A DNA stretch of 64,000 nt, from IMG/VR virus record IMGVR_UViG_3300016643_000249, positions 7,358 through 71,357 of that record, one strand, 5' to 3'. Made by a program: the position numbers and the translations under genes. The notes beneath the pieces were generated by a model. The model was not told where the DNA came from, searched no databases, and was given only the letters and a program-made list of their open reading frames with translations. Positions 4,242 through 25,736 of the stretch are shown piece after piece. This stretch comes from a virus (taxonomy: Duplodnaviria > Caudoviricetes). Positions within the stretch are counted from its first letter, which is position 1. Every line of letters begins with the position of its first letter.

Positions 4242-4468
4242 ATAGCGTTTTTGTATTAATGATTATCACAGCAAATGGTGTTGTTGAAGCACCAAATGCT
4301 TTTAAATCACTAGCAGATTGTCAAGCTGTTGTTCAGCGTGTTCAAAGAGAAACTTATTGTGTTGAAAAGAAACCGGTTGATGTTCAAAAGGAAATGAATA
4401 CTTTTTTAGCATTGTTTAAGTCAATGCAGAGGCAGATGGAAAATGATTTCGCTAAAGATACAAAATAA
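4238..4468 (+). CDS. hypothetical protein
   Basis: ATGA overlap; N-terminal hydrophobic stretch, two Cys. Confidence 0.65.
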   Translation: MNSVFVLMIITANGVVEAPNAFKSLADCQAVVQRVQRETYCVEKKPVDVQKEMNTFLALFKSMQRQMENDFAKDTK

Positions 4469-4601
4469 AAAACCTCGCAATTTCGTAGCGAAGGATTTGT
4501 TCAGTCCTAAATATAAGCTTCGTGTAGTAAAAAGCAAGAAGAAATACAATAGGCAGTTGGACAAATCCTCACTACGAAAGGAAGTTTATGCAGCAGCCTG
4601 A
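4443..4601 (+). CDS. ArfA-like (alternative ribosome rescue factor A) basic 52-aa protein ending in YAAA
   Basis: MISLKIQNKKPRNFVAKDLFSPKYKLRVVKSKKKYNRQLDKSSLRKEVYAAA matches the ArfA pattern N..L..P.(F/Y)..RV.K.KK..Y.R but lacks GKGS; not in ORF track. Confidence 0.6.
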   Translation: MISLKIQNKKPRNFVAKDLFSPKYKLRVVKSKKKYNRQLDKSSLRKEVYAAA

Positions 4602-4992
4602 AGATAAAAAGTCACATGAATTTGATGGCATCTATTTTTTACCTTACGAAGATGAAAAAGAAGAAGGGCTTTTAATATCATATTTTGATTTTAAGAATGA
4701 AATGGCAGACGGAACACCAATTGAAGGAACTGCCATAGGACCAAAATATCATATTGCCTTTTTCAAACAAGGTGAAGATGGAATGCCGGTATTTGATGAA
4801 ACATTTGAGGCAATTCTTGGTGACCCTGGCAAATACATTCAGAACCTTACCGGTGCCGGAGTGTATGGTTGTGTGGTAAAAAAGACAAACAAATCACAAA
4901 AATGGTTTGAAGATTACCTCAATCGCACATTAAATCATATTACAATGAAGAAGATGGTCGGTTGTTTGAAGTCAATTTTAGAAACTAAATGA
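4588..4992 (+). CDS. hypothetical protein
   Basis: AAGGA RBS, 134 aa ORF. Confidence 0.75.
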   Translation: MQQPEDKKSHEFDGIYFLPYEDEKEEGLLISYFDFKNEMADGTPIEGTAIGPKYHIAFFKQGEDGMPVFDETFEAILGDPGKYIQNLTGAGVYGCVVKKTNKSQKWFEDYLNRTLNHITMKKMVGCLKSILETK

Positions 4993-5008
4993 TGAAAGTG
5001 AGTATATT

Positions 5009-5689
5009 ATGCCTAATTGGTGCAACAATACATTTGAACTGGTAGCTCCGAAAGAAAAGATTCGTGAGTTTGAAACTTTTCTAAACGAAAAAAATGGTAA
5101 AGATTGGTTTGATTTCTTTGCTCCATGTCCACAAGAACTTAAAGATGTTGGTGATGTATCTGTTCATCACACCGATGAGCAATTGCTAGAAAAATATGGA
5201 TACTCTGATTGGTATTCGTTTGGTCTTGGTGAATGGGGTTGTAAATGGAACTGTGATGCAAACGATTGGACAGTAAGTGAGTATGATGATGAAAACCTAA
5301 GCATCAATTTTTGGTTTGATTCGCCGTGGGGACCACCAGAAAATTTGTATCAAAACATTAGTAATGGCAATTTTGGCGAAGATTTGAATGTGTTTGCTGA
5401 ATGGCATGAAGAAGGAATGTGTTTCGTTGGTCGCTTTCAGTATGGTGATAGTGAAAATTATGAATATTCTGACCTTGATTCGCTTGATGAAATCCCGGAA
5501 GACCTGTTAGACAACTGGAATATCCGTGAAATGCTTGAAGAGCGTGCAGAATGGGACGAAGAAGAAGAATTGGAAGAGATTGCTGAAGAATTTGATTCGC
5601 TTTCCGATGATTCCAAGCAAAAAGTTTTAGATGAGTTGAAAGAAGAACTAGCAAAAAGTGATGAAACACCTAAAAAGTGGCCAAATTAA
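5009..5689 (+). CDS. DUF1281/YubB ferredoxin-like domain protein
   Basis: MPNWC.N start, WG.KW, F.F.SPWGPP motifs; acidic tail. Confidence 0.75.
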   Translation: MPNWCNNTFELVAPKEKIREFETFLNEKNGKDWFDFFAPCPQELKDVGDVSVHHTDEQLLEKYGYSDWYSFGLGEWGCKWNCDANDWTVSEYDDENLSINFWFDSPWGPPENLYQNISNGNFGEDLNVFAEWHEEGMCFVGRFQYGDSENYEYSDLDSLDEIPEDLLDNWNIREMLEERAEWDEEEELEEIAEEFDSLSDDSKQKVLDELKEELAKSDETPKKWPN

Positions 5690-5704
5690 TTGAAGGAGTT
5701 GATA

Positions 5705-5980
5705 ATGGCAAGTGAAATTGATACAAAAGAAGGTCGTGAGTGGTTAAAAGGTCTGCTTCGTGAGCGTGAAGTGACAATTTTCTTTACAAAAAAAGACGGA
5801 ACTGAGAGAGAAATGCTCTGCACTCTTTCGGAAAATAAAATTCCGTCTGAAAAAACGCCAAAAAACAGCGGAAAGTCAAAATCTGATGATGCACTTGCTG
5901 TTTTTGATGTGAAAAAAAGTGATTGGCGCAGTTTCCGCTGGGATTCTGTGAAAAAAGTTGAGTTTTCTATTGGAGAATGA
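5705..5980 (+). CDS. WYL_2/SH3-like phage protein
   Basis: VTIFFTKKDGTEREMLCTL ... AVFDV....WRSFRWDSV. Confidence 0.75.
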   Translation: MASEIDTKEGREWLKGLLREREVTIFFTKKDGTEREMLCTLSENKIPSEKTPKNSGKSKSDDALAVFDVKKSDWRSFRWDSVKKVEFSIGE

Positions 5981-5984
5981 AAAA

Positions 5985-6293
5985 ATGAGTGAAAAAAAGC
6001 GTTTTGCAGTTGAATCTTTGTCAACTTTTGCTGAAGTTCATATAGTTTATGCTGAAAATGAAGAAGAAGCAAAAAGAATTGCTGAAAATTCTGACTACAA
6101 TATGTCAAAATGGCTTGGCCAACAAATAATTCGTGTTCGTGATTGCGGAAATAAGCAAATTGAACGCTATTGCAAAGAAGATGAGTATTTTTTCACAGGC
6201 GCTGCACAAATTAACAAAGACGGTTATCTTGTTTACACAGACCTTGACGGGGAAATTGTAAATGAAGCAATGCCAAAAGAATTTTTAGGATAA
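5985..6293 (+). CDS. hypothetical protein
   Basis: GGAG RBS, ATG 5985. Confidence 0.7.
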   Translation: MSEKKRFAVESLSTFAEVHIVYAENEEEAKRIAENSDYNMSKWLGQQIIRVRDCGNKQIERYCKEDEYFFTGAAQINKDGYLVYTDLDGEIVNEAMPKEFLG

Positions 6294-6299
6294 TTTTTA

Positions 6300-6324
6300 G
6301 CTCCGTTAGTTAAATGGTATAACA
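6300..6324 (+). pseudogene. tRNA 5' remnant (acceptor 5' strand + D arm)
   Basis: GCTCCGT-TA-GTTA-AATGGTA-TAAC-A then abrupt loss of tRNA pattern. Confidence 0.55.
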
Positions 6325-6352
6325 CTTAAAAAATATAAATAGTTATACCATT
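6313..6352 (+). promoter_or_regulatory. hairpin enclosing a T4 late promoter ahead of the HNH RBS
   Basis: AATGGTATAAC (6313-23) / GTTATACCATT (6342-52) perfect 11 bp; TATAAATA 6334-41. Confidence 0.7.
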
Positions 6353-6367
6353 AAGAGGTTTTAAAAT

Positions 6368-6769
6368 ATGAGTAAAAAATTAACATTCAGTTGTTTAAGT
6401 TGTAAAAAAGAACATACAACATTGAACAAATATTCAAACAAAAATTTATTTTGTTCTATACAATGCCAACAAGATTATTTAATGGATGAAAGAGTTAAAA
6501 GTGGTAAAGCAAAACCCAGAACATTAAAAAAATTCCTGATACGAAATCATGGAAATAAATGTTGGACTTGCGGTATACTAGAGTGGAATAATAAACCAAT
6601 TGTTATGGAATTGGAACATATTGATGGCAATTCTGAAAATAACGATTTAAAAAATTTATCTTTAATATGTCCAAATTGTCATTCACAAACACCAACATAT
6701 AAAGCAAAAAATGTAGGAAAGGGCCGACATTCTAGGAGAATGAGATATGCGGCCGGAAAAAGTTTTTAG
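6368..6769 (+). CDS. HNH homing endonuclease
   Basis: CxxC pairs, ELEHIDGNSENN...L.LICPNCHSQT HNH motif; very AT rich. Confidence 0.9.
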   Translation: MSKKLTFSCLSCKKEHTTLNKYSNKNLFCSIQCQQDYLMDERVKSGKAKPRTLKKFLIRNHGNKCWTCGILEWNNKPIVMELEHIDGNSENNDLKNLSLICPNCHSQTPTYKAKNVGKGRHSRRMRYAAGKSF

Positions 6770-6843
6770 CCTTCAAAACATAGGTAGCGATGTACCCGCC
6801 TTGTAAGCGGGAAAGTTCGGCGCAAATCCGGATGAAGGCACCA
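6769..6843 (+). tRNA. tRNA-Thr(UGU), non-canonical (A8, T-loop CGCAAAT)
   Basis: GCCTTCA/TGAAGGC acceptor, ACAT/ATGT D stem, CCCGC-CT TGT AA-GCGGG, encoded CCA. Confidence 0.8.
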
Positions 6844-6847
6844 AATA

Positions 6848-6924
6848 CGGAGTTTAGCGCAGCCTGGTAGCGCATCTGCTTTGGGAGCAGAGGGTCGCAG
6901 GTTCAAATCCTGCAACTCCGACCA
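6848..6924 (+). tRNA. tRNA-Pro(UGG)
   Basis: Canonical cloverleaf, TCTGC-TT TGG GA-GCAGA, TTCAAAT, CCA. Confidence 0.95.
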
Positions 6925-6928
6925 ATCT

Positions 6929-7013
6929 GCGAAAGTGGTGGAACTGGTATACACACAGCACTTAAAATGCTGCGCCTTAGGGATTGAGGGTTCAAATCCC
7001 TCCTTTCGCACCA
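6929..7013 (+). tRNA. tRNA-Leu(UAA)
   Basis: CAGCA-CT TAA AA-TGCTG, long variable arm, CCA. Confidence 0.95.
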
Positions 7014-7015
7014 AA

Positions 7016-7090
7016 CTGACCGTGGTGAAATGGATATCACAGTAGCCTTCTAAGCTTCTATTCCGGGTTCAATTCCTGGCGGTCGGACCA
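7016..7090 (+). tRNA. tRNA-Arg(UCU)
   Basis: CTGACCG/CGGTCGG acceptor, CT TCT AA loop, TTCAATT, CCA. Confidence 0.92.
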
Positions 7091-7093
7091 AAT

Positions 7094-7168
7094 GGGCGAG
7101 TAGCTTAATGGTAAAGCAGGCGACTCATAATCGCTTGAGTGTGGGTTCAATTCCTACCTCGCCCACCA
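7094..7168 (+). tRNA. tRNA-Ile2(CAU) (lysidine type; Met not excluded)
   Basis: GGCGA-CT CAT AA-TCGCT anticodon arm as in E. coli ileX; CCA. Confidence 0.9.
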
Positions 7169-7175
7169 TAACTCT

Positions 7176-7183
7176 TATAAATA
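7176..7183 (+). promoter_or_regulatory. T4-type late promoter
   Basis: TATAAATA. Confidence 0.7.
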
Positions 7184-7244
7184 TGTACCTATTGATATTT
7201 GTCAGCTTGTGATTTACAGTATGCGAATTACAAGAAAGGCAAGT

Positions 7245-7814
7245 ATGAAAAAAGTATTGGTCTCAATCGCTATGATTGTGGCTGCAGGTTCTGTTTATGC
7301 TCAAACTGTAATAGACACTACAACCAAAAGTTATTCTGATTCAAAAACAAAAGTAGAGAGTCCGCCACCAACGGCCGTGGCTCCTGCTATCACAACCATC
7401 AATAACGATGTTTGCGCCATTGCAGCTTCCGGCGCAGTTCAAACACAGATTCTTGGTATCTCTATGGGCGGTACAATGCGAGATATGAATTGCGAAAGAA
7501 TCAAACTAGCAAAAAATTTATATGACATGGGTATGAAAGTTGCCGCTGTAGCAACTCTATGCCAAGACGAGCGCATTTTTACAGCTATGAATGCCGCTGG
7601 CACTCCTTGTCCTGTTGAAGGTAAAATTGGTGCTGAAGCAAAAGATGAGTGGGAAAAAAGAGGAGTTGCAACCAAAGGTGGCGACATTGGGTTTTATGGA
7701 ATTTCTGCACCAAAGAAACAACCAGAAAAACTTGATGCTAAAAAGGGAGAATTTCTCTGTAAAGATTATGCAGGAGATGACCCAACAATCAAAGAGAGAT
7801 TAGGTTGCAAGTGA
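7245..7814 (+). CDS. secreted protein
   Basis: Signal peptide MKKVLVSIAMIVAAGSVYA; several Cys. Confidence 0.75.
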   Translation: MKKVLVSIAMIVAAGSVYAQTVIDTTTKSYSDSKTKVESPPPTAVAPAITTINNDVCAIAASGAVQTQILGISMGGTMRDMNCERIKLAKNLYDMGMKVAAVATLCQDERIFTAMNAAGTPCPVEGKIGAEAKDEWEKRGVATKGGDIGFYGISAPKKQPEKLDAKKGEFLCKDYAGDDPTIKERLGCK

Positions 7815-9352
7815 AAACCTTTCTGATATCTTTATTGTTTGTTTGTGGTTCTGTTTTTGCACAACAGACCACTACACCTAATTTAATTGGCAACGGCGTT
7901 GGTTATGGTAGCGGCGAATGGCAAAATATTGGCGCATACACACAATTAAATGGACAATTACCTACTGCTGTTTTTGGATGTTGCACAAGTTTTGGTTCTG
8001 GTGTTCTGCTTGACACCTCTACTAGCAGTCCTAATGGTCAATCAGGTCAATTACATTGGAGTTATGGTCTTTCAACTGTTCAACAAGTGATTGCAATTAA
8101 TCAAGCGTTGTCAGGAACAGGAATTCGTATTAATGGTTATAATTGGGGTTATGAAGTAAGAAATGCAAACGGCGGCGGAGGACAAGGTGGTGTTGATTCA
8201 CTTACCGCTTCTACATTCCTAAAAGATAATACTGGTTCAACCGTTCTTTCAGATACAAGAACATACAATACGACTTCAGAATGGAATTGGTACGGAGGTA
8301 CAGTAACATCAGCAACACCAATTACAAACGCAGACCAAGGCCAACTTGGCATTTCGTTCACATCTATAGATTCTGGTTATTGGGCAGGTTACTATGGCCC
8401 ACAGGTTCGTAATGTGAGTATGGGTTTGAATTATACGGTTGACGCTTGTGCTTCTAATCCATTGTCAGACCCATCTTGTCCTGGATATGCAGCTGCTTAT
8501 CAGACACAACAATGCTCAATTAACCCATTGTATTCGCCGTCTTGTCCTAATTACACAACGGCTCAATGTTCAATTAACCCATTGTATTCTACCTCTTGTC
8601 CTGGTTATTCAGCAGCTTATTTGACACAACAATGTAACTTAGATGGACTTTATAGCACTTCTTGTCCAAATTATGCTGAAGCCTATGCGAAGAAAAACAT
8701 TTTAAGTATAGATACAACTGGTACAAGTTCACCGACACAAACAACAAACACAACTTCAAAAACAGAAGCAACCACAAAAGTATCATCAGATGGTAAAATA
8801 GAAACTTCAGTATCAAAAACTGGTGATAGTAATGTGGATAGTGTAATTGAAGCGAAAGCAACATCTGCTTCTCCTGGTGATGCAACTGCAACTGTTCAAT
8901 TGACACCACCATCTGGAGGTTCAAATGTTAGTCCTCAAACAAACACCAAAACTGAAACAAAAACAGAAACAAAGGCCGCATCATCCAGTAATCAACAACA
9001 AACCACCAAAACTGCAAGAACAGAACGAAACGAACAAAAATCTGGAACTAATGAAGGTAAATCTAATAATGAAATGAAACAGGCTGCACAACAAAAAGCC
9101 AAAGAAGAAATGAAAAGAGCAGAAGTAGCAACATCATTTGAAGGCCAGGTGGCAATTCAACAAAATGTGATTGGTGCTATGAGTTTTGTTCCAGGTTTTG
9201 CTTCTTATGCTAAAGCAGATGTGCCAGATGTTTTGCAAAGGCAGTTACAAAGGCAATATGGAAAAGATGTTGTAGATAATCGTGCTAATCGTAGAATGTT
9301 TAGTGGTTCAGATAAACTACACGAAGAAATGGTTAGCCAACAATACAGATGA
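7811..9352 (+). CDS. large secreted protein with four Cys repeats and Thr/Ser-rich linker
   Basis: Signal peptide; C-x2-(N/D)-(P/G)L-x3-SCP-x-Y repeats; GTGA overlap start. Confidence 0.8.
   Translation: MKTFLISLLFVCGSVFAQQTTTPNLIGNGVGYGSGEWQNIGAYTQLNGQLPTAVFGCCTSFGSGVLLDTSTSSPNGQSGQLHWSYGLSTVQQVIAINQALSGTGIRINGYNWGYEVRNANGGGGQGGVDSLTASTFLKDNTGSTVLSDTRTYNTTSEWNWYGGTVTSATPITNADQGQLGISFTSIDSGYWAGYYGPQVRNVSMGLNYTVDACASNPLSDPSCPGYAAAYQTQQCSINPLYSPSCPNYTTAQCSINPLYSTSCPGYSAAYLTQQCNLDGLYSTSCPNYAEAYAKKNILSIDTTGTSSPTQTTNTTSKTEATTKVSSDGKIETSVSKTGDSNVDSVIEAKATSASPGDATATVQLTPPSGGSNVSPQTNTKTETKTETKAASSSNQQQTTKTARTERNEQKSGTNEGKSNNEMKQAAQQKAKEEMKRAEVATSFEGQVAIQQNVIGAMSFVPGFASYAKADVPDVLQRQLQRQYGKDVVDNRANRRMFSGSDKLHEEMVSQQYR
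8447..8674 (+). repeat. intragenic tandem repeat (4 units) coding CSINPLYS.SCP.Y-like motifs
   Basis: caatg(c/t)tcaattaacccattgtattc...tcttgtcct repeated. Confidence 0.85.
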
Positions 9353-9555
9353 CAAGCACACTATTTGAATCGTTCATGGTATTTTATGCACTAGAAGTTT
9401 TAGTTCTAGGAGTTTTAGCATTTAATATTCTTAGAGAAATGAAACAAGAAAAACTAGATGAACAGGAAAACGAAAGTCAGAGAGCAACAGGTCCATCTGC
9501 CTCTGATATGATAAAGATGAGAGCATTGGCAAAACAAATGGACAGACAAAAGTAA
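9349..9555 (+). CDS. small single-pass membrane protein
   Basis: N-terminal TM, charged tail; ATGA overlap. Confidence 0.65.
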   Translation: MTSTLFESFMVFYALEVLVLGVLAFNILREMKQEKLDEQENESQRATGPSASDMIKMRALAKQMDRQK

Positions 9556-9564
9556 GGAATTAAA

Positions 9565-10041: not shown

Positions 10042-10053
10042 TAAGGGGCAGTT

Positions 10054-10831: not shown

Positions 10832-10841
10832 ATGATTATTG

Positions 10842-10900: not shown

Positions 10901-10927
10901 GTGGAATCTAGTGAAAAATGGAGTTTT

Positions 10928-12855: not shown

Positions 12856-12857
12856 TT

Positions 12858-15216: not shown

Positions 15217-15645
15217 ATGAAAGTTGTTGTTTGTTCTGGCGGGTTTGACCCAATCCATTCTGGCCACATTTCCTATTTTCGCTCAGCAAAACGCCTAGGT
15301 GACATACTTGTTGTTGGTGTGAATTCTGATGAATGGTTGACACGAAAAAAAGGCAAACCTTTTATGTCTTTGCAAGAAAGGTTAGAAATTATTCAGTCAA
15401 TCAAATATGTTGATTATACAATGAAATTTATTGATGACGATGATTCAGCACGACACCTCATTCATAATGTTAAATTAATGTGGCCTAGTGCCGAAATAAT
15501 TTTTGCAAATGGCGGTGACCGTAATGAAACAAACAATCGTGAAGCTGATGTTGAAGGCGTAACTTTTATGTTTGGTGTTGGTGGTTCACATAAAATGAAT
15601 TCATCTTCTGAAATTTTAAAACAATGGGCTCATATACCATGTTAA
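15217..15645 (+). CDS. cytidylyltransferase-like (RfaE/TagD family) nucleotidyltransferase
   Basis: GGFDPIHSGH (HIGH-like), VGVNSDEWL..KKG, GGD. Confidence 0.88.
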   Translation: MKVVVCSGGFDPIHSGHISYFRSAKRLGDILVVGVNSDEWLTRKKGKPFMSLQERLEIIQSIKYVDYTMKFIDDDDSARHLIHNVKLMWPSAEIIFANGGDRNETNNREADVEGVTFMFGVGGSHKMNSSSEILKQWAHIPC

Positions 15646-16394
15646 AAGTTGCTGTTGTTACTCCTACAATTGGGTCTGAGCATTTGACACAATGTTTAGA
15701 GTCCGTTGAAAAACAAACTTACAAAAATCTAACACACTATATTTTTATTGATGGTTGTCAATATGAACCAAAAGTAAAAGAGTTGATTAGAAACTATCCA
15801 AAAACAAAGTATGTTGAACTAGAAGAAAATGTTGGAAAAGGTTGGTACGGGCATAGAGTTTATTCTGCTTGTTCTTTTTTGGTTAACGCTGATGTTATTT
15901 GTTACCTTGACGAAGATAATTGGTACGAACCTTGTCATGTTAATAAACTGGTGGAGAAAATTCAAAATGGAAACGATTGGGCGTATTCTTTACGAAAAAT
16001 TTATGACAAGCAAGGAGAATATCTCTGTAATGACAACTGTGAATCGCTGGGCAAATGGCCTGTATATTTTAATAATCAGGTTTTCCACATTGACACCTCT
16101 TCTTTTGCCGTTAAGCGTGATGTTGCTGTTCGCATAGGCCACGCCTGGTATGGCCAATGGGGTGCTGATAGACAATTCTTTTCTAATCTATCAATGCATT
16201 TTCCAAACTTTGATTGCACCCATGCTCATACACTTTGTTACCGATTGGATGGAAATCCAAAATCTGTGACAAAAGATTTCTTTGACCAAGGCAATGAAGT
16301 GATGACCAAGAAATATGGTGATGTTTTTCCTTGGCACAATAACAACAGATTGAAACAAATTGAAATTGGTCCTGGCATTATTTTATCACAATGA
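15639..16394 (+). CDS. glycosyltransferase, GT-A fold (GT2-like)
   Basis: VVTPT, SVEKQTY, YLDEDNW (DxD). Confidence 0.85.
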   Translation: MLKVAVVTPTIGSEHLTQCLESVEKQTYKNLTHYIFIDGCQYEPKVKELIRNYPKTKYVELEENVGKGWYGHRVYSACSFLVNADVICYLDEDNWYEPCHVNKLVEKIQNGNDWAYSLRKIYDKQGEYLCNDNCESLGKWPVYFNNQVFHIDTSSFAVKRDVAVRIGHAWYGQWGADRQFFSNLSMHFPNFDCTHAHTLCYRLDGNPKSVTKDFFDQGNEVMTKKYGDVFPWHNNNRLKQIEIGPGIILSQ

Positions 16395-16897
16395 AAATAG
16401 AAAAAACAAAGCTACCTGGTGTTCTACTCATTACACCTCCAGTTCTTGCTGAAGATTTCCGTGGTACAAACACCGAAGTATATCACCAAGATGAATATGA
16501 AAAAAATGGTATTAAAACTAAATTTATTTTAGATTCTGTTAGCACTTCTCGGCACAAAGTATTGCGTGGCATTCATGGTGACAATCGTACCACAAAATTA
16601 ATTACTTGTTTGTATGGTTGCATTTATTTTGTTGTATTAAACCGTGACCCATCATCATCACATTTCAATGAATGGCAATCGTTTACTTTATCCGATAGGA
16701 ATAGACAACAGGTGCTGGTGCCACCAAATTATGGTAATGGTCATCTTGTAATGAGTGACCATTGTGTGTTTTCGTATAAACTAGATGCTTATTATGACAG
16801 AGCAAGCCAATTCACAATCCGCTGGGACGATTCTGGACACAATATTTGGTGGCCAGTTAAAGACCCTATTCTTTCCGAACGGGACGCACTCCTCTGA
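16391..16897 (+). CDS. rmlC: dTDP-4-dehydrorhamnose 3,5-epimerase family (cupin)
   Basis: D.RG, VLRGIH, VPP.YGNGH, I.WDD...NIWWP. Confidence 0.88.
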   Translation: MKIEKTKLPGVLLITPPVLAEDFRGTNTEVYHQDEYEKNGIKTKFILDSVSTSRHKVLRGIHGDNRTTKLITCLYGCIYFVVLNRDPSSSHFNEWQSFTLSDRNRQQVLVPPNYGNGHLVMSDHCVFSYKLDAYYDRASQFTIRWDDSGHNIWWPVKDPILSERDALL

Positions 16898-16898
16898 T

Positions 16899-17849
16899 AT
16901 GAAAACTGCATTTGTGACCGGTAGTTCCGGTTATTTGGGTTCTCATGTCTGTAAAGAACTCAAAAAAGTTGGTTGGAAAGTTTTTGGTTATGACACTCAA
17001 CAACCTAAACACCAATACCTTGATATGTGGGAAAATGCTGATGTGCGTGATGAATTATCTTTGTATGGTGCATTGAAGCGATGTAAACCTGATGTTGTAT
17101 TTCATTTTGCTGGTAGAATTGAAGTTGGCCTTTCAATTGAAGAGCCTACCGAATTCTATGAAGTGAATGTTGCCGGCACTACAATACTTTTGAATTTGAT
17201 GGCAAAACTTGGTCTTAACAATATCATCTATTCTTCAACTGCCGGAGTTTATGCACCTCAAAACCGACCAATCATGGAACCAGATGAAAAGAATTGGGAT
17301 AACAATCCTTACGCTGGTTCAAAGTTATGTGCGGAAATGGCCATTCGCCATTCCAATCTGAAACATATCATATTCCGTTACTTTAATTTGGCAGGTGCTG
17401 ATCCAGACAATGAAATTGGAGAGTGCCATGAACCAGAAACGCACTTGATTCCAAAAACTTTGCAAAATCTAAATAATGTTGTTGAAATCTATGGAACAAA
17501 TTACAATACAGAAGATGGCACTTGCATTAGGGACTATGTTCATGTCTCGGATGTTGCCAATGCTCATGTCCTTGCTGCAAATCATTTACTCTCTGGCAAA
17601 GAATCACACATACTCAACCTTGGTACAGGCCAAGGCGAATCGGTAGTTTCCGTTGTCAGTAAAATCATTCAAATTACTCGGCAATCAAATGTCAATGTTA
17701 AAACTTTGCCAAGACGAGATGGCGACCCGGATAGTTTAGTTGCCGATATCTCTCTTGCCAAAAAGATATTGAATTACCGACCAAAACATGATATAATGAC
17801 TATTCTTCAAACCGCATATAATTGGCATCTGAAACAAAATGGCAAATAA
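16899..17849 (+). CDS. galE: UDP-glucose 4-epimerase
   Basis: TGSSGYLGSH, YxxxK, RYFN.AGA, PETHLIP, DGTCIRDYVHV.D.A.AH. Confidence 0.9.
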   Translation: MKTAFVTGSSGYLGSHVCKELKKVGWKVFGYDTQQPKHQYLDMWENADVRDELSLYGALKRCKPDVVFHFAGRIEVGLSIEEPTEFYEVNVAGTTILLNLMAKLGLNNIIYSSTAGVYAPQNRPIMEPDEKNWDNNPYAGSKLCAEMAIRHSNLKHIIFRYFNLAGADPDNEIGECHEPETHLIPKTLQNLNNVVEIYGTNYNTEDGTCIRDYVHVSDVANAHVLAANHLLSGKESHILNLGTGQGESVVSVVSKIIQITRQSNVNVKTLPRRDGDPDSLVADISLAKKILNYRPKHDIMTILQTAYNWHLKQNGK

Positions 17850-18405
17850 TAGAGATACAGAATTTATACCAGCAGAAGATAGAATTAATGCTGGTTTATT
17901 GGAAAATCATATACATTTCTTGTATGGTGATATAGAAGAAGAAAATACAATGGATGCTATCTATTGGATTACCTATGAGAACCTAAAACCTAATGACGAT
18001 ATTCTCACTCTGTATATTAATTCAGATGGTGGGTCTTTACAAGATGCTTTCGCTCTTATTGATGTGATGAGAAAGTCCAAGAAAAAAATTAGGACTATTG
18101 GCATAGGTTCTGTTTGTTCATCGGCTTTTTTAATCTTTGCTTCAGGAACTAAAGGTGAAAGGTTTATCAGTCCAACAGCTTCTGTAATGTGTCATCAATA
18201 CACCGATGGCCTGACTGGAAAATACCACGATATCAAAGCAACAGCGAAAGAACACGAACTCATTAATAACCGAATGGTTGATTTATTGAAACAATGTACC
18301 GAGTTGAACACTACAACAATCAAACGAAAACTTTTGCAACCAAGTGATGCATACTTTACAGCAGAAGAATTGATTGAACTAGGTATAGCAGACGGACTTT
18401 TCTAA
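17839..18405 (+). CDS. clpP: ClpP-family protease subunit
   Basis: LYINSDGG, CSSA (Ser), MCHQ (His), D.YFTAEE.IE.G.AD. Confidence 0.85.
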   Translation: MANNRDTEFIPAEDRINAGLLENHIHFLYGDIEEENTMDAIYWITYENLKPNDDILTLYINSDGGSLQDAFALIDVMRKSKKKIRTIGIGSVCSSAFLIFASGTKGERFISPTASVMCHQYTDGLTGKYHDIKATAKEHELINNRMVDLLKQCTELNTTTIKRKLLQPSDAYFTAEELIELGIADGLF

Positions 18406-19274: not shown

Positions 19275-19276
19275 TT

Positions 19277-19591: not shown

Positions 19592-19605
19592 TTGGAGATT
19601 TTACA

Positions 19606-19791: not shown

Positions 19792-19792
19792 C

Positions 19793-20131: not shown

Positions 20132-20221
20132 GTGGTCACTAACTTAATGCAAACCCTTACCTGGTATTGTTGCTTTTTTACAACACACCCCCTTGACATT
20201 ATTGCCAACCTGTAGTATAAT
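20125..20221 (+). promoter_or_regulatory. early promoter cassette with two palindromes
   Basis: TAGGTGAGTGGTCACTAACTTA, TGTTG-N8-CAACA 20168-85, TTGACA 20193-98, 17 nt, TATAAT 20216-21. Confidence 0.88.
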
Positions 20222-20251
20222 GGTCCTATTGAAATTGAGAGAGGTTATATT

Positions 20252-21001: not shown

Positions 21002-21002
21002 T

Positions 21003-21218
21003 ATGAATTATGCAAATCGTGAAGTGTTTACTCGGCATGGTGGTGCGTATGACCGTGGTTCTGCTGATGCTTGGTATGGTCGCCCCGCTAGGCCGCATTA
21101 TTTTACTGGTGACACTCATCAGTCAACCGAGATTGAAGAAGTGGACATGAGTGAAGAAGAAATCGCTGCTTACATGGCAGGTTACAATGAAACACCTTTT
21201 GCTCAGAAAGAGTGGTAA
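21003..21218 (+). CDS. hypothetical phage protein
   Basis: RHGGAYDRGSAD.WY motif. Confidence 0.7.
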   Translation: MNYANREVFTRHGGAYDRGSADAWYGRPARPHYFTGDTHQSTEIEEVDMSEEEIAAYMAGYNETPFAQKEW

Positions 21219-21219
21219 T

Positions 21220-21441
21220 ATGATTCGCAGAAAACCTAAGAAGTTTAAACCACAAATTGATTTGTCTGGCCCACAAGGCAATGCTTTCTATTTGTTGGCT
21301 GTTGTAGATAAAACATTTCGCCAATCTGGTGCGCCTGACCTAGGTAAATCAATTATGGATGAAATGAAAAAAGGCGATTACGAGCATTTGGTGAAAACCT
21401 TTGACTTGTATCTTGGTGAACATTTTGATATCGTGAGGTAA
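21220..21441 (+). CDS. hypothetical phage protein
   Basis: IDLSGPQGNAF motif. Confidence 0.7.
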   Translation: MIRRKPKKFKPQIDLSGPQGNAFYLLAVVDKTFRQSGAPDLGKSIMDEMKKGDYEHLVKTFDLYLGEHFDIVR

Positions 21442-21443
21442 TT

Positions 21444-21686
21444 ATGTTAAAGTTTATGTCTTATTCATCACCTGCAAATGAAACATCGCTCTTCAAAGGA
21501 ATACCAATGAGTGAATATACAAAAGAGAATCGTGCTTATTTCCGTAAGTTTGTAAAGCCCGGTACTGAGTTACGATTTCTTTTTCGTGGACCTCGCCCAA
21601 TGAAAAACAGGCGGTCCTCGTATACCCGGCAATCATATTGTATCAAAGAAGATGCAATTACTTTTGCCGTTTATGTAAGGCGGTAA
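21444..21686 (+). CDS. hypothetical protein
   Basis: GAGG RBS. Confidence 0.65.
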   Translation: MLKFMSYSSPANETSLFKGIPMSEYTKENRAYFRKFVKPGTELRFLFRGPRPMKNRRSSYTRQSYCIKEDAITFAVYVRR

Positions 21687-21702
21687 ACATTGGCAAAATA
21701 CC

Positions 21703-21731
21703 TTGACAATCTAACCGTGTTGTGTTATAAT
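21703..21731 (+). promoter_or_regulatory. consensus sigma70 early promoter
   Basis: TTGACA-17-TATAAT with extended -10 TG. Confidence 0.9.
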
Positions 21732-21765
21732 AGCTGTTCCAAAATTGATAAAGGAGTTTTACATT

Positions 21766-22212
21766 ATGGCTCGTGGTAAATCAACAAAACTTAAACCCTT
21801 CCAGAAACTGCTGACTGTCATGCAATCTGGCAAACCTGTAACGATTGATGAGATTGAAAAAACTCTCGGTAAAGAAATCTATATGTACCGATTGTCTACT
21901 TATATGTGGCATATCAAAACTCAGGCAAACGGTACCGTGAAGGCAATCAAAGACGGTCGCAAAGTGACAGCGTATCAGATTATCAATACTGAAGAAGTTA
22001 AAGAGTATATGAAGCGTGCTGGTGTTACTAGCGCAAACTTTACTCCCGGTCAAACGACTAAGAAGCCTTCAATTGCTAAACTCGCTGACCTTGCAGCAAA
22101 ACCTGCGCCTGCGAAGAAGGCACCTGCAAAGACACCTGTTAAACCAAAGAAAGTTGAAGCAGTTGCAACAGAAGATGATTTAGAAATCGTTGAAGTGCAA
22201 GAAGCCGCTTAA
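21766..22212 (+). CDS. hypothetical, possibly winged-helix DNA-binding protein with Lys/Pro/Ala linker
   Basis: AAGGAG RBS; ends EAA. Confidence 0.7.
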   Translation: MARGKSTKLKPFQKLLTVMQSGKPVTIDEIEKTLGKEIYMYRLSTYMWHIKTQANGTVKAIKDGRKVTAYQIINTEEVKEYMKRAGVTSANFTPGQTTKKPSIAKLADLAAKPAPAKKAPAKTPVKPKKVEAVATEDDLEIVEVQEAA

Positions 22213-22223
22213 TTGAACAAGAC

Positions 22224-22312
22224 GGGGGAGTTGCCCACCGAACCGAGTATTCTGGTAGTGTGCCGCTCATTCTTAAACAACAATGACTGTCGGGAGATAG
22301 CCAGAGTGCCCC
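22224..22312 (+). ncRNA. candidate structured RNA
   Basis: Nested GGGG/CCCC, TCTGG/CCAGA, CCG/CGG, TCATT/AATGA in a GC-rich intergenic island. Confidence 0.45.
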
Positions 22313-22341
22313 TTATCTAAACATATTATGGAGATTTTGTA

Positions 22342-22521
22342 ATGGTTCAAATGTTAAATGTAAGTGAAAAAGCTGCAAAGTTTATGATGGCAAAACCTGG
22401 TTCTTTTTTTGTTGTTCCAAAAAGTGCAGAAGTGCCATTTGAAACTTGTGCGAAGTTTGGTGTAAAATTATTTGTTACACCGATGCGTGATAAACCTTTT
22501 AAAGTAGTAAAACGAGTTTAA
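22342..22521 (+). CDS. 59-aa hypothetical protein
   Basis: GGAG RBS; MVQMLNVSEKAAKF...KVVKRV. Confidence 0.6.
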   Translation: MVQMLNVSEKAAKFMMAKPGSFFVVPKSAEVPFETCAKFGVKLFVTPMRDKPFKVVKRV

Positions 22522-22762
22522 TTGCCAGCCAGGGTAACGCTTGGCTACTGTGACCCGCAGGAAGAGAAATGAGTTCGTTACTCATGGGTGGTTCCATTCT
22601 ATGAGAAATAGAGTTGTCTCAAAAAGACAGGTCAAACCGAACCGGCGTTGGCAATACGAGAGTCCTTGGGTTGATAAGCGGATGGAAGGAGAAGCAGGTA
22701 AGCTGGTAGAGCTCTTGGCAGTAAGCCTTCTCTATATGTACCGCAGGTCCAAGGAAGCACCC
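22522..22762 (+). ncRNA. candidate two-domain structured ncRNA (about 240 nt)
   Basis: At least eight compatible helices (see findings); intergenic, GC above surroundings. Confidence 0.6.
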
Positions 22763-22781
22763 TTTACTAAGGAAATACAAT

Positions 22782-23075
22782 ATGAAAGATAGTGAAAAAC
22801 AAATCTTACTAATCTGCCAAGAAGAATGTGCTGAGGTCACACAGGCGATTAGTAAGGTTTTTCGTTTTGGTTATGATTCTGAATACAATGATAGAACTAA
22901 CCGTCAGCGATTAACCGAAGAAGTTGGTGATTTGCTTGCGATGATTGATTTGATGGTTGAATCAGGCATAGTTGATGAAGCAGCAATTGAAATGGCATCA
23001 GCGCAGAAAAAAATTAAGTTAAAACAATGGTCAAACATTTTTGATAAACCTAATTTAGAATTGGTAAAGAACTAA
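22782..23075 (+). CDS. MazG-like NTP pyrophosphohydrolase
   Basis: QEECAEV..AISK ... LTEEVGDLL. Confidence 0.8.
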   Translation: MKDSEKQILLICQEECAEVTQAISKVFRFGYDSEYNDRTNRQRLTEEVGDLLAMIDLMVESGIVDEAAIEMASAQKKIKLKQWSNIFDKPNLELVKN

Positions 23076-23260
23076 TGAATTTTATTAATTACCTCAAATA
23101 TAGTGGCGCTTCTGTTACAATGACGGTGAATCCATACCATTGGTCTTGGATTCCCCGTTTTTTCCATGGTAGAGAAGATGCGTGGGACGATACCGAAACA
23201 TTGAGTGTTTCATTTTTGTTTTTAACTGTAAGAATTTGGATTGATGACGGAAGTTGGTAA
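23075..23260 (+). CDS. hypothetical protein
   Basis: TAATG-coupled ORF. Confidence 0.6.
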   Translation: MNFINYLKYSGASVTMTVNPYHWSWIPRFFHGREDAWDDTETLSVSFLFLTVRIWIDDGSW

Positions 23261-23823
23261 TGAATATTTTTTACCTTGACAAAGACCCTCGCAAATGTGC
23301 TGAAATGCACCTTGACAAACATTGTGTAAAAATGATTATTGAGTATGCACAACTTATGTCAACGGCACACCGAGTGTTAGATGGTACCGAATACTATGAT
23401 AAGACCGCAAATGGTCGCAAGATTAAGCGTTGGCGCCTAAGTGATGACCGAGAAAGCCGATTGATGAAAGCTTCTCATATCAATCACCCCTCTGGTGTAT
23501 GGGTTCGTGCCAACAATGAGAACTACAGGTGGTTGTTTACAATGTGGCAATTTCTTTGTGAGGAATATACTTTTCGTTATGGTAAACAACACGCCTGTAG
23601 CCGTTTACTTGGTGACCTGAACAATTTGCCAAAATCAATTTCAACTGGTAAATTTTATCCACCCACACCAGCTATGCCTGATGAATGTAAAATTGCCGGT
23701 GATTCCTTAGCTTCGTATCATAAATATTACAATGAACGCAAATCACATTTTGCAAAGTGGACAAAACGACCTGTACCTGTTTGGTATTCGCCGGTCATAA
23801 ATACAAATAATGCCAACCTATAG
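23260..23823 (+). CDS. pyrimidine-dimer DNA glycosylase (DenV-like) family protein
   Basis: MNIFYLD..P..CA..H.DKH.VKM..E.AQL..TAH; NHP..VW. Confidence 0.75.
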   Translation: MNIFYLDKDPRKCAEMHLDKHCVKMIIEYAQLMSTAHRVLDGTEYYDKTANGRKIKRWRLSDDRESRLMKASHINHPSGVWVRANNENYRWLFTMWQFLCEEYTFRYGKQHACSRLLGDLNNLPKSISTGKFYPPTPAMPDECKIAGDSLASYHKYYNERKSHFAKWTKRPVPVWYSPVINTNNANL

Positions 23824-24115
23824 TTTTATTGATACTGATTCGGGTGAAGAATTTGATGCGCTTATGAAAATTTCTGAGCGTGAAGAATATCTTAAAAGTA
23901 ACCCACACATTCAACCACTATTGACAGCTGCTGCAATTGTCGGCGGTGTCTCCATCAAAGATAAAGTTCCCGCTGGTTTCAAAGAAGTTCTTGCTAAAGT
24001 ATCAGAGAATCACAAAGGTTCTGCTGTTGCTGATGCTCACGGTAAACGCTCAATCAAAGAAACAAAAACCAAAAGAGTAGTAGATTCTTTACACAAGAAA
24101 AAATATGGGAAGTAA
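23810..24115 (+). CDS. conserved T4-like hypothetical protein (FmdB-like N-terminus)
   Basis: MPTYSF.D..SGEEF. Confidence 0.7.
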   Translation: MPTYSFIDTDSGEEFDALMKISEREEYLKSNPHIQPLLTAAAIVGGVSIKDKVPAGFKEVLAKVSENHKGSAVADAHGKRSIKETKTKRVVDSLHKKKYGK

Positions 24116-24511
24116 TTGAGACAAAGAGATTTAACAAATATACCTTTAGGCAAAACAGTTTGTTCTGTTTGTAATGAGAGTAAAGATAATACTGAGTTTT
24201 CATTTTACAAAAAAAGAAAAACTGCAAATGGTTATCGGTTAATGGTTAATACTAATTGCAGAGATTGCCAGAAAAAAAGAAGGACTGAACTAAAAAAGTT
24301 AAAAAAATTATACAAACCCCCTTTATTCGGAACACCATGTGATTTGTGCGGAAAGCCTGTTTTTAAAAATTGGCAATTAGACCATGACCATGAAAATGGA
24401 AAAATTCGTGGATGGTTGTGTAAACAATGTAATACTGGATTAGGAAATTTAGGAGATAATTTAGAATCTTTACAGAAGGCAGTAAATTATCTTAAAAGAA
24501 TTGAGAAGTGA
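24116..24511 (+). CDS. endonuclease VII-like (His-Me finger) nuclease
   Basis: CDLCG...LDHDHENGKIRGWLCKQCNTGLG; TTG start. Confidence 0.85.
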   Translation: MRQRDLTNIPLGKTVCSVCNESKDNTEFSFYKKRKTANGYRLMVNTNCRDCQKKRRTELKKLKKLYKPPLFGTPCDLCGKPVFKNWQLDHDHENGKIRGWLCKQCNTGLGNLGDNLESLQKAVNYLKRIEK

Positions 24512-24544
24512 TTTCGTCATGTCAATAACCTCCAAGGAGATAGT

Positions 24545-24730
24545 ATGGCAAAACGAAAAGGTATTGAAACAAAAGCAGCACTTTTGCAACAACACTTTAA
24601 GGGAGAGCTTCGGAAAGCCGATGAGAATGAACTAGGCGAATGGTCGCACGAAAACATACAAAAAAACCGAGAAAGGTATATCAGAGAAAACTTCCCTTGG
24701 TTACTGGAAAGGTATAAACAACCAATATAA
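24545..24730 (+). CDS. hypothetical protein
   Basis: AAGGAG RBS. Confidence 0.65.
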   Translation: MAKRKGIETKAALLQQHFKGELRKADENELGEWSHENIQKNRERYIRENFPWLLERYKQPI

Positions 24731-25407
24731 TGAAATCTTTTAATCATGTAAAACTAAGTGAATTGGACTTTGAGTTAGAATCCGAAACAACAGAATCGGG
24801 TAGGACTTATAAAACACCGGGAGGAAAGTCCTACCCATCCATCACAACCGTATTATCCAATTACAACAAAAAAGCAATCTACGAATGGCGTCAAAGAGTT
24901 GGTGAAGATGAAGCCAATCGCATTTCACGAGCCGCTTCTGGTCGTGGCACAAAGCTTCATAACGCTGTTGAGAAATATCTTTTAAACGAAATGACTGACT
25001 TGAAATATAAGTCAATGATGCCTGACACTAAAGAGTTATTTCTCAAAGTGAAGCCGTTCTTAGATAATCACATTGGCGACATATATGGCATTGAACAACC
25101 GTTGTATAGTGACAGATTGCATATTGCTGGTCGGTGCGATTGTATTGCACAATGGGAAGGCGAGTTATCAATTGTTGACTGGAAAACATCATCAAAAGTA
25201 AAAGAAAAAAGTTACATACAAAATTACTTTATGCAATGTGCGGCATATGCTGAAATGTTTGAAGAAAGAACTGGCAAACCAATCAAACAAATTGTGGTTG
25301 CCATTGCGGTAGAAGATTCTGATATGCCTTTAATTTTTATTGAAAACAAATCGGACTATCTTTTGCCTCTCCAAGAATACATTTTAAGATATAATAGTCC
25401 GATATAA
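24730..25407 (+). CDS. PD-(D/E)XK exonuclease (Cas4/RecB-like)
   Basis: YPSITTVL, RGT.LH, AGRCD, IVDWKTS, Q.AAYA.M. Confidence 0.88.
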   Translation: MKSFNHVKLSELDFELESETTESGRTYKTPGGKSYPSITTVLSNYNKKAIYEWRQRVGEDEANRISRAASGRGTKLHNAVEKYLLNEMTDLKYKSMMPDTKELFLKVKPFLDNHIGDIYGIEQPLYSDRLHIAGRCDCIAQWEGELSIVDWKTSSKVKEKSYIQNYFMQCAAYAEMFEERTGKPIKQIVVAIAVEDSDMPLIFIENKSDYLLPLQEYILRYNSPI

Positions 25408-25410
25408 ATA
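25403..25410 (+). promoter_or_regulatory. T4-type late promoter of tmRNA gene
   Basis: TATAAATA directly upstream of the acceptor piece. Confidence 0.75.
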
Positions 25411-25411
25411 T

Positions 25412-25736
25412 TGAATTCGTTGAAGATTGTTGAACGATGCGTTGGACGCCGGGGCAGTACCGGCCAGGTCCACCAAAAGCACATTTAAGGCCGCAGCGCC
25501 CACGATAATTTGCTGTAGTGTGCTTTTGATGGGCCTGACATAGTTTAGACAGCGTAGCAATTAGACAATTGGAGAATCGCCAAAGCTAAAGGCGTTAGGG
25601 TTGTGACAACACGGCCGAAGAAGCAGATAGTAACCGCAAACGATGAAAAGTTCGCATTAGCAGCCTAAACGCTGCTTAGGGTTTCGGTGGGTTTTGGCAC
25701 CAAGGGTGCCTTCCTCGTAACAGAAAAACTCCACCA
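25412..25736 (+). ncRNA. ssrA: circularly permuted (two-piece) tmRNA; tag ANDEKFALAA
   Basis: T arm GCCGG-GGCAGTA-CCGGC + CAGGTCC-A-CCA (to 25475); intervening segment; 5' end GGGCCTG at 25531 (G3.U70); tag ORF 25636-25668; outer ends approximate. Confidence 0.92.

Follow-up and report, generated by a model that had tools for sequence, protein, structure and literature searches.

Separately inherited, host-dependent tmRNA, ArfA-related and ClpP genes as the probable content of an uncultured T4-like phage genome

Does a phage that carries a tmRNA, an ArfA-like gene and a ClpP homologue rebuild a linked ribosome-rescue network? The question arises from a 64,000-nucleotide stretch of viral DNA (the window; positions 7,358 to 71,357 of IMG/VR record IMGVR_UViG_3300016643_000249), for which a preliminary description had proposed such a circuit. 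Judged from its sequence, the source of the window is an uncultured, aquatic T4-like myophage of ~160 kb. Among cultured phages, its closest relatives are OM43 phage Melnitz and the pelagimyophages, whose baseplate gp6 homologues are ~40% identical to that of the window phage. The rescue-type genes are dispersed in the window, as had been described, and their neighbours are unrelated replication and sugar-modification genes. The reading that we favour, with a probability of roughly two in three, is that these are separately inherited, host-dependent accessory genes that were co-retained by descent, and that they form neither an obligatory module nor a copy of the E. coli ArfA circuit.

The tmRNA, tRNA and ClpP genes

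A circularly permuted (two-piece) tmRNA gene lies at 25364..25759 on the plus strand, as recognised by ARAGORN, Rfam and reading of the sequence. ARAGORN called it at 25383-25759 with the tag ANDEKFALAA, and the Rfam family tmRNA_permuted (RF04321) matched at 92.8 bits against a gathering score of 47; RF01849 matched at 63.2 bits and RF01850 at 59.2 bits, the latter under its gathering score. On the plus strand, the acceptor piece runs up to 25475 and ends in CAGGTCC-A-CCA (25465-25475), an intervening segment of 55 nt follows (25476-25530), and the coding piece opens with GGGCCTG at 25531. This opening and the acceptor end together give G3.U70; host AlaRS presumably charges the molecule and host SmpB delivers it. 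The tag reading frame called by ARAGORN, GCA...TAA (25636..25668, plus strand), encodes ANDEKFALAA, so the degradation tag of the preliminary description is borne out. Across GTDB, the tmRNAs from 32 species, almost all of them Burkholderiales, bear the same tag, which suggests that host ClpXP-type proteases should read it. The tags of all relatives of the window phage end in LAA.

Five tRNAs span 6769-7168, the number previously described. Four of them, Pro(TGG), Leu(TAA), Arg(TCT) and Met(CAT), form a plus-strand cluster at 6848..7168 and were found both by ARAGORN and by Rfam at the gathering threshold (52.7-72.9 bits). The divergent fifth (6769..6840, plus strand) was missed by ARAGORN and recovered only by Rfam with permissive filters (RF00005, 42.2 bits against a gathering score of 29); its anticodon loop reads as Thr(UGU)-like.

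The ClpP homologue is a 188-aa serine peptidase encoded at 17839..18405 on the plus strand. It matched PF00574 at 111.8 bits (E 1.3e-33), and its intact Ser-His-Asp triad aligns with S111/H136/D185 of E. coli ClpP. The AlphaFold model has a pLDDT of 93.4, and every one of its top PDB matches is a ClpP (TM 0.85-0.88). The gene overlaps the end of a nucleotide-sugar epimerase gene. That the protein might instead be a capsid (prohead) maturation protease is suggested by its best PHROG matches, which are labelled head maturation protease, and by a match to NCBIfam Clp_rel_HeadMat (2.4e-17), but we consider this scarcely credible. Canonical NCBIfam ClpP models match better (3.8e-30, yet far under their equivalog cut-offs), and the fold is that of cellular ClpP. 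The gene sits in an auxiliary region among sugar-modification genes, and the first baseplate gene follows ~18 kb downstream. Since the head module of complete relatives contains a prohead protease of its own, of T4 gp21 type (Peptidase_S77), the ClpP homologue is an accessory gene and not the head protease. Compared with E. coli ClpP, it is ~16 residues short in the N-terminal axial-loop region, which E. coli ClpP uses with ClpX and ClpA. This active-site-intact paralogue would depend on a Clp ATPase from the host, or may act on peptides alone.

A small basic protein related to ArfA

The ArfA-like ORF (4443..4601, plus strand) encodes a basic protein of 52 aa (pI 10.6), ends at its own TGA stop and overlaps its upstream and downstream neighbours by 26 and 14 nt, respectively. 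Translation, homologues and profiles place it as ArfA-related and DUF7230-like. Seven homologues share 70-90% identity with it, and a family search collected 230 representative clusters at E<=1e-3, one member cluster being named ArfA by JGI. DUF7230 was matched by 59 of 115 family members and Pfam ArfA by 10 of 115 (best E 4.6e-8). Alignment of the family with ArfA by hhalign gave a probability of 66% (E 5.7e-5). The family HMM scored E. coli ArfA at 19.0 bits, above the maximum of 11.7 bits from 2000 shuffles, and a strict HMM of 100 sequences scored it at 11.0 bits, a value attained by 1 of 2000 shuffles. These comparisons indicate a remote but significant relationship between the DUF7230-like family and ArfA. 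The preliminary identification therefore holds for the existence of the ORF, its conservation and the kinship of its family, but not for the ORF itself, which gave no match to Pfam ArfA at E<=10. With the 52-aa sequence alone, phrog_20887 matched at E 5.8e-5, DUF7230 reached 11.6 bits against a cut-off of 27 (E 0.32), and an enterobacterial ArfA HMM gave only 5.2 bits, equalled by 21 of 2000 shuffles.

The ArfA positions kept in the alignment are N14, L20, P23, F25 (Y in the window protein), R28, V29, K31, K33-34, Y39 and R41. In ArfA, Pro23 and the stretch His21-Glu30 occupy the A site, where P-x-Y/F-R-x-R-V makes contact with RF2 and with the decoding centre; binding to the mRNA tunnel is through the basic tail (PMC5378476). 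The 52-aa protein could, alternatively, be a phage-specific small basic protein of the DUF7230 type that binds ribosomes or nucleic acids and is not a rescue factor. It might, for example, block host trans-translation or modulate translation, its resemblance to ArfA reflecting only a shared mode of binding the mRNA channel. We regard this as unlikely, though a serious contender. It is favoured by the want of a direct Pfam ArfA match, by the loss from the ORF of three of the residues in the GKGS stretch of ArfA and by poor conservation, relative to ArfA, of the N-terminal region with which ArfA activates RF2. It also fits the family's wide occurrence in phages whose hosts are not known to use ArfA, alphaproteobacterial phages being one example. 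Pfam ArfA was likewise absent from ten Burkholderiales genomes with the ANDEKFALAA tag. Against it, the A-site stretch is the best-conserved block shared with ArfA, intermediates with KGKGS-like inserts connect the two families, and a pelagiphage homologue, HTVC027P gp30, has been annotated as ArfA in print (PMC12753301). On the favoured, rescue-type reading, the protein would most likely insert its basic tail into the vacant mRNA channel and bring in a release factor of the host, and rescue would be tag-free.

A hairpin and a degron had also been ascribed to this gene. The hairpin did not hold up: folds at the 3' end had z scores of -0.9 and +0.8 against shuffles, no better than chance. In E. 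coli, ArfA is made from non-stop mRNA and tagged by tmRNA. The phage gene ends at a TGA stop of its own and has no hairpin that exceeds chance expectation, so it does not rebuild this control. As for the degron, YAAA is indeed the ending of the protein, yet just 8 of the family's 158 members have a YAA(A) ending; all belong to the closest subclade, where it is kept down to 65% identity.

Distribution of the three genes and of their partners

Relatives were sampled as 26 IMG/VR records with the ArfA-like gene, mostly fragments in which absences carry little weight. Permuted tmRNA was found in 14 of the 26 and ClpP in 15, while all four complete relatives have the three genes. The co-occurrence expected by the preliminary description is thus seen in complete members of the clade, and the trio is kept across a diverged clade of ~160-170-kb T4-like phages. 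Across phage lineages, the expectation fails. The complete cultured cousins Melnitz, HTVC008M and Mosig have the tmRNA but neither the ArfA-like gene nor ClpP, and six other complete cultured phages have the ArfA-like gene without a tmRNA above the Rfam cut-off, five of them also without ClpP. The tmRNA, the ArfA-like gene and ClpP are independently distributed across phage lineages, an outcome named beforehand among those that would refute a circuit, and their co-occurrence within one clade is accounted for by common descent.

Neither SmpB nor a Clp ATPase was found in the whole 71-kb record, extending what had been noted for the window, and SmpB, ClpX, AAA_2 and the RF-1 domain of release factors were all absent from the four complete relatives. 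Because the complete relatives lack genes for these partners, the rescue kit is not self-sufficient.

These observations bear on the linked network itself, in which the ArfA-like protein would back up the phage tmRNA, ClpP would dispose of tagged products, and the YAA(A) tail would make the ArfA-like protein a Clp substrate. In its favour are the presence of the three genes in every complete genome of the clade, the LAA end on the tags of all relatives, the subclade's retention of YAA(A), and the distance of 1.2-11.3 kb that separates ClpP and tmRNA in 19 records, with both gene orders represented. This close and lasting spacing in two orders could reflect a functional tie, which we discount here. 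The ArfA-like gene, however, is 13 kb from ClpP in the window, and two relatives (G033 and G035) have it ~33 and ~38 kb, respectively, away from their tmRNA. The rarity of the YAA end in the family, the lack of non-stop-mRNA control, the nine complete cultured phages with tmRNA alone or the ArfA-like gene without tmRNA, and descent as a sufficient account of co-occurrence also weigh against such a network. We judge it quite improbable, and a linked rescue circuit is unsupported. What stands of the earlier proposal is that the parts are intact, belong to rescue and proteolysis families and are conserved in the clade.

A further possibility is that tmRNA and ClpP serve demolition and not quality control, an idea put forward in PMC9004378. 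It would suit the nearness of the two genes in all relatives and the housing of ClpP in the auxiliary-gene region. However, tmRNA tags only peptides on stalled ribosomes, never finished host proteins; no sequence feature is aimed at host proteins, and pelagimyophages have tmRNA without ClpP. We therefore hold this to be improbable.

Under the favoured reading of separately inherited accessory genes, a hyperplastic early/middle region would hold several separately acquired, host-dependent helpers in translation upkeep. The phage tmRNA would release ribosomes that have stalled on truncated mRNAs, adding the tag ANDEKFALAA to their peptides, and the five tRNAs would supplement the host pool. We infer each of these biochemical steps, and likewise any cooperation between the parts.

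Comparison with known systems

Each part has already been reported from phages. Two-piece tmRNA (ssrA) is known from OM43 phage Melnitz and pelagimyophages HTVC008M and Mosig (Buchholz et al. 2022, PMC9004378), and no phage smpB is reported for this group in that paper as we read it. Like the window phage, these are aquatic T4-like myophages with a permuted tmRNA and an LAA-ending tag. The window phage differs in its tag, which equals that of Burkholderiales and not SAR11-type tags, and in having the ArfA-like gene and ClpP, both of which the cultured phages lack; a glutamine riboswitch, in turn, was not detected in the window with Rfam.

E. coli ArfA (YhdL, PF03889), the RF2-dependent alternative rescue factor, is likewise small and basic and shares with the window ORF the core N-x2-x-x-L-x2-P-x-(F/Y)-R-x-R-V-x-K-x-KK...Y-x-R. 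The 52 aa of the window ORF approximate the 47-55 aa active (truncated) length of E. coli ArfA, but the hydrophobic C-terminal extension is missing along with the three GKGS-stretch residues. Unlike E. coli arfA, the ORF is closed by a stop codon of its own and lacks a hairpin of RNase III type. HTVC027P gp30 and the DUF7230 (PF23876)/phrog_20887 proteins are, like the window ORF, phage-encoded small basic proteins of ArfA type. Profile matches (E 1e-8 to 1e-13) came from Acinetobacter phages 133 and ZZ1, Sinorhizobium phage phiM12, Agrobacterium phages OLIVR5 and Atu_ph07, and Roseobacter phage CRP-13; in contrast to the window, the six cultured DUF7230-type phages tested all carry the gene without tmRNA. 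The window protein is a divergent member of this type, and its YAA(A) ending is lineage-specific.

Many large phages have annotated accessory ClpP genes. The window ClpP shares the fold, triad and handle helix of bacterial ClpP (MEROPS S14; Coxiella 3q7h, E. coli 1yg6), yet it is just 26-32% identical to solved ClpPs, is shortened at the axial-loop region and has no phage-encoded ATPase partner. Compared with the E. coli network of tmRNA-SmpB, ArfA-RF2 and ClpXP, the phage side has no SmpB, RF2 or ClpX and no regulatory link at the mRNA level; the three component types nevertheless meet in one phage genome, as scattered genes that are independently inherited across phages.

Permuted tmRNA, tRNAs and genome setting of a T4-like phage

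The complete record comprises 71,357 bp, of which the window covers bases 7358-71357, and its CheckV completeness is 44%. Baseplate hub, tube cap and wedge proteins were matched in the window by PHROG profiles, and gp32, gp59, RNase H, endonuclease VII and an Mre11-type phosphoesterase were matched by Pfam models. These baseplate and replication/recombination matches indicate that the virus is a T4-like myophage. No close cultured phage was found for the window at the DNA level, and its gp6-like wedge protein is ~40% identical to the gp6-like proteins of Melnitz, a phage of OM43, and of the Pelagibacter phages HTVC008M and Mosig. The GC content of the window is 37.7%. At 55369-61819, four phrog_2295-matching paralogues of ~300-330 aa each alternate with small paralogous ORFs in what looks like a repeated tail-fibre-like array, and a clear HNH_3 endonuclease is encoded at 30330-30815.

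The preliminary description had reported a two-piece tmRNA with a degradation tag, and both were confirmed. ARAGORN and Rfam agreed on a permuted tmRNA at 25364-25759, which scored 92.8 bits with the Rfam covariance model RF04321 (tmRNA_permuted) against a gathering score of 47. Reading of the sequence placed the acceptor piece, with its T arm, upstream of the coding piece; the acceptor piece ends in CAGGTCC-A-CCA, with the 3' CCA ending at 25475, and is followed by a 55-nt spacer and then the coding piece. The start of the coding piece, GGGCCTG (25531-37), pairs with CAGGTCC (25465-71) to form an acceptor stem with a G3.U70 pair. The tag reading frame called by ARAGORN (25636-25668) encodes ANDEKFALAA, resuming on Ala and closing with a hydrophobic xLAA before the stop codon. 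The tag ends in ALAA or RLAA in 12 clade relatives and in ALAA in Melnitz, Mosig and HTVC008M. The Melnitz tmRNA has a glutamine riboswitch, whereas none was detected by Rfam at the tmRNA of the window, even at E<=1. Two-piece tmRNAs have been reported in 17 of 47 Melnitz-like contigs, and tmRNAs in 2.3% of phage genomes overall (PMC9004378).

A T4 late promoter motif, TATAAATA, was found at 25403-25410, immediately ahead of the tmRNA model start. The motif occurs five times in the window against 5.7 occurrences expected, which is chance, and it was upstream of the tmRNA in 0 of the 12 clade relatives examined. It is possible that a T4 late promoter drives the tmRNA of the window, and such a promoter is not conserved in the clade. 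All five sites (6334, 7176, 25403, 47037 and 61824) are on the + strand; those at 6334, 7176 and 25403 lie immediately 5' of genes or of the tmRNA model start, and the site at 61824 lies between ORFs. The 3' end of the tmRNA is adjoined by a 52-aa ORF (25758-25916), preceded by an AAGGAG ribosome-binding site; the start of this ORF resembles a signal peptide, and it contains a repeat rich in Lys, Ala, Glu and Pro, of the KKEAPKAE type. The five tRNAs noted earlier were also recovered, four of them by ARAGORN and Rfam alike and the fifth, divergent one (6769-6840) at 42.2 bits by Rfam under permissive filters only. The ORF at 6368-6769, beside the tRNA cluster, had been called an HNH gene; it matched no Pfam family at E<=0.001.

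An accessory ClpP homologue

The gene at 17839-18405 had been described as a ClpP homologue, and its product matched PF00574 at 111.8 bits (cut-off 20.2). Among NCBIfam models, canonical ClpP models (3.8e-30) were favoured over ClpP-related head-maturation models (2.4e-17), with the phage protein scoring far under every NCBIfam cut-off: it reached 88 bits of the 308.6 required by the TIGR00493 equivalog model, and the subfamily models gave the same picture. A Ser-His-Asp triad aligns with S111, H136 and D185 of E. coli ClpP, and the corresponding S94, H119 and D170 are invariant across 35 homologues. The AlphaFold model (pLDDT 93.4) has a ClpP fold, and its top PDB matches were all ClpP (TM 0.85-0.88, rmsd 1.4-2.3 A). 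Compared with E. coli ClpP, the phage protein is ~16 residues short in the N-terminal axial-loop region; a host Clp ATPase is a possible partner. The alternative that this protein serves as the head protease was rejected, since complete relatives encode a T4 gp21-type prohead protease separately, at another place in the genome, and the ClpP homologue is therefore an accessory gene. Many large phages have genes annotated as accessory ClpP.

A nucleotide-sugar epimerase gene lies directly upstream of ClpP both in the window and in a complete relative, G003. In the window it belongs to a sugar-nucleotide cluster (15217-17849) that lies directly 5' of ClpP and overlaps it, with cytidylyltransferase-like, glycosyltransferase, dTDP-4-dehydrorhamnose 3,5-epimerase and nucleotide-sugar epimerase genes. 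Recoding in the ClpP genes of relatives, raised by a flag for one internal TAG, was dismissed because the TAG is the terminal stop codon only.

Distribution of the three genes and a host clue from the tag

Close relatives of the ArfA-like ORF (4443-4601) were found in 26 IMG/VR records by a first search. A permuted tmRNA was present in 14/26 and ClpP in 15/26, and the records lacking them were mostly small fragments. Widening the search, with the AKDLRTPK core of the family, gave 556 viral stretches; 40 records were tested, and a tmRNA over cut-off and ClpP were each found in 7/40. All three genes were present in each of the four complete genomes (G003, G012, G033 and G035; 162-172 kb). ClpP and the tmRNA were 1.2-11.3 kb apart, in two gene orders, in all 19 records with both, and the ArfA-like gene was 7 kb to nearly 40 kb from them. 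In the window the genes are separated by replication, recombination, sugar-modification and unknown genes. Five further relatives selected by gp6 (G077-G081) were uninformative; three of these have the tmRNA. In the two longest of the three, a contig end is reached within ~3 kb of the tmRNA, and the places expected for ClpP and the ArfA-like gene are therefore probably off the fragments. SmpB and Clp ATPases were not found in the whole 71,357-bp record, in agreement with the initial observation, and by domain cut-off SmpB, ClpX, an AAA_2 Clp ATPase and an RF-1-domain protein were found in none of the four complete genomes. This indicates that SmpB must come from the host.

Beyond the clade the distribution differed. 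A permuted tmRNA is present in Melnitz, HTVC008M and Mosig, in which neither ClpP nor an ArfA-like gene (E<=1) was found. Conversely, the ArfA-like gene was found in six complete cultured phages of several lineages, Acinetobacter phages 133 and ZZ1, Sinorhizobium phage phiM12, Agrobacterium phages OLIVR5 and Atu_ph07 and Roseobacter phage CRP-13, with profile E-values of 1e-8 to 1e-13. No tmRNA passed the Rfam cut-off in these six phages, and among them ClpP is present in Atu_ph07 (490 kb) alone. With the window's own ORF as query, tblastn against cultured phages returned nothing, and these matches required a query from nearer the centre of the family. In CRP-13 (locus L257) the match lies within a larger annotated CDS, gp52 (313 aa), and has an open frame of its own of only 46 aa, so that either a small overlapping gene has been left unannotated or gp52 is mis-called.

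The preliminary description had proposed that the phage rebuilds a linked tmRNA/ArfA/ClpP rescue circuit, and had named independent distribution as a refuting outcome. The three genes do occur together in the clade of the window, but they occur apart in the nine complete cultured phages, and it is independent distribution that was found across lineages. Descent by itself predicts that the genes are retained together within a single clade. No paper joining a tmRNA, an ArfA-like gene and ClpP was found in the literature. Collectively, these results do not support a tmRNA-ArfA-ClpP circuit. The tmRNA, the ArfA-like ORF, ClpP and the tRNAs are nevertheless real, intact and conserved, and host-dependent functions of the individual parts are plausible. 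Each part has already been reported from phages, and a new mechanism is not demonstrated here.

The window does add a host clue, since its tag is identical to the Burkholderiales tag. The exact tag ANDEKFALAA was found in the tmRNAs of 32 GTDB species, of which 31 are Burkholderiales-type betaproteobacteria and the exception is a 337-bp Stutzerimonas contig. The genera include Rubrivivax, Roseateles, Cupriavidus and Ideonella, with lake and pond MAGs among them. We infer that this suggests a host or donor of the phage within the Burkholderiales-type group. Pfam ArfA was found in 0 of 10 tag-sharing bacterial genomes tested. The tmRNA is one-piece in most tag-sharing Burkholderiales. Among the Cupriavidus and Pelistega loci (L153, L155, L160, L162, L163, L165 and L174), those of Cupriavidus sp. 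amp6 and of Pelistega europaea were called as permuted by ARAGORN. The phage tmRNA also has a patchy but collinear match, at 80-87% across three segments, in several further contigs of Cupriavidus, and two tag-bearing loci occur in one genome of this genus; these may be copies on mobile elements.

The ArfA-like ORF and its relation to E. coli ArfA

The 52-aa ORF gave no match to Pfam ArfA (PF03889, cut-off 25.5 bits) at E<=10, scored 5.2 bits with an enterobacterial ArfA HMM, and matched DUF7230 (PF23876) at 11.6 bits (E 0.32), below the 27-bit cut-off. Its sole significant direct match was phrog_20887 (E 5.8e-5). In the ESM Atlas, a DUF7230 cluster (score 0.92) is among the nearest clusters, and seven metagenomic homologues are 70-90% identical. 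A profile search extended the family to 230 representative clusters of ~50-aa proteins with the core (K)PRNxVAKDLRTPKYRMRVVxSKKxYxRK. On sequence grounds, the gene is genuine and conserved. It is followed, with a 14-nt overlap, by a 134-aa ORF (4588-4992), and a 111-aa ORF (5958-6293) lies further downstream; some 15 related loci have both in the corresponding position. A different subclade has, next to the ArfA-like gene, a downstream homologue of the window's DUF1281_C-like ORF (5009-5689) instead. No Pfam, PHROG or Atlas lead was obtained for any of these ORFs, the ESM Atlas search with the 134-aa ORF giving no usable match.

At the family level, DUF7230 was matched by 59/115 members at E<=1 and Pfam ArfA by 10/115 (best E 4.6e-8), and one member cluster bears the JGI name ArfA. 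Alignment of the family profile to enterobacterial ArfA with hhalign covered 34 columns (E 5.7e-5). E. coli ArfA scored 19.0 bits under the family HMM, compared with a maximum of 11.7 for 2000 ArfA shuffles; under a strict HMM from which intermediate-looking members had been removed it scored 11.0 bits, equalled by 1/2000 shuffles. P22, Y24, R27, V28, K30, K32-34, Y35 and R37 of the ORF align with ArfA positions, and the aligned block corresponds to the ArfA A-site stretch (Pro23, Phe25, Arg28-Val29) and the start of the basic tail. Roles of this A-site stretch have been described, and the basic tail fills the mRNA tunnel (PMC5378476). At the ArfA KGKGS segment, both alignments show a three-residue gap, which removes three residues of the GKGS stretch. 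Together, the family-level statistics and the sub-threshold direct scores lead us to place the ORF, as a divergent member, in a largely phage-borne family related to ArfA rather than in Pfam ArfA. The ORF stands as translated in the preliminary description, and its family is related to ArfA, but the ORF itself falls below the Pfam ArfA threshold. Of the two regulatory features also described, the YAAA end called a degron is present but confined to the nearest subclade (8/158 family members), and an RNase III-type hairpin at the 3' end of the ORF was discarded, as folding was no better than for shuffled sequence (z -0.9 and +0.8).

No paper on DUF7230 was found in the literature; gp30 of pelagiphage HTVC027P is annotated as ArfA and its expression has been shown (PMC12753301). 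We consider, at odds of roughly one in ten, that DUF7230-type proteins, including the ORF of the window, could be a phage-adapted ArfA branch that recruits the host release factor to ribosomes left stranded on cleaved mRNAs during infection. Such a protein would act beside the phage tmRNA and ClpP in the freshwater T4-like clade, and through its lineage-specific YAA(A) tail Clp would control it as a protein, in place of the mRNA-level control of E. coli. During infection, host mRNA decay and defence RNases and tRNases destroy mRNAs and strand ribosomes; phage-borne rescue factors would then be a general means to keep the translation apparatus usable. To this the window adds a clean example of a freshwater T4-like clade retaining a tmRNA, an ArfA-type peptide and ClpP, as well as statistical support for widespread phage DUF7230-type peptides being remote ArfA relatives. 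The ArfA-like peptide is the most testable part because, at only 52 aa, it can be synthesised.

E. coli ArfA is made from a non-stop mRNA and repressed by tmRNA, whereas the phage ORF has its own in-frame TGA stop codon (4599-4601) and no hairpin beyond chance. The length of the phage protein is close to that of the active, truncated form of E. coli ArfA. Its own stop codon and this active-ArfA length suggest that production of the 52-aa protein would be constitutive, unlike that of the tmRNA-repressed E. coli ArfA.
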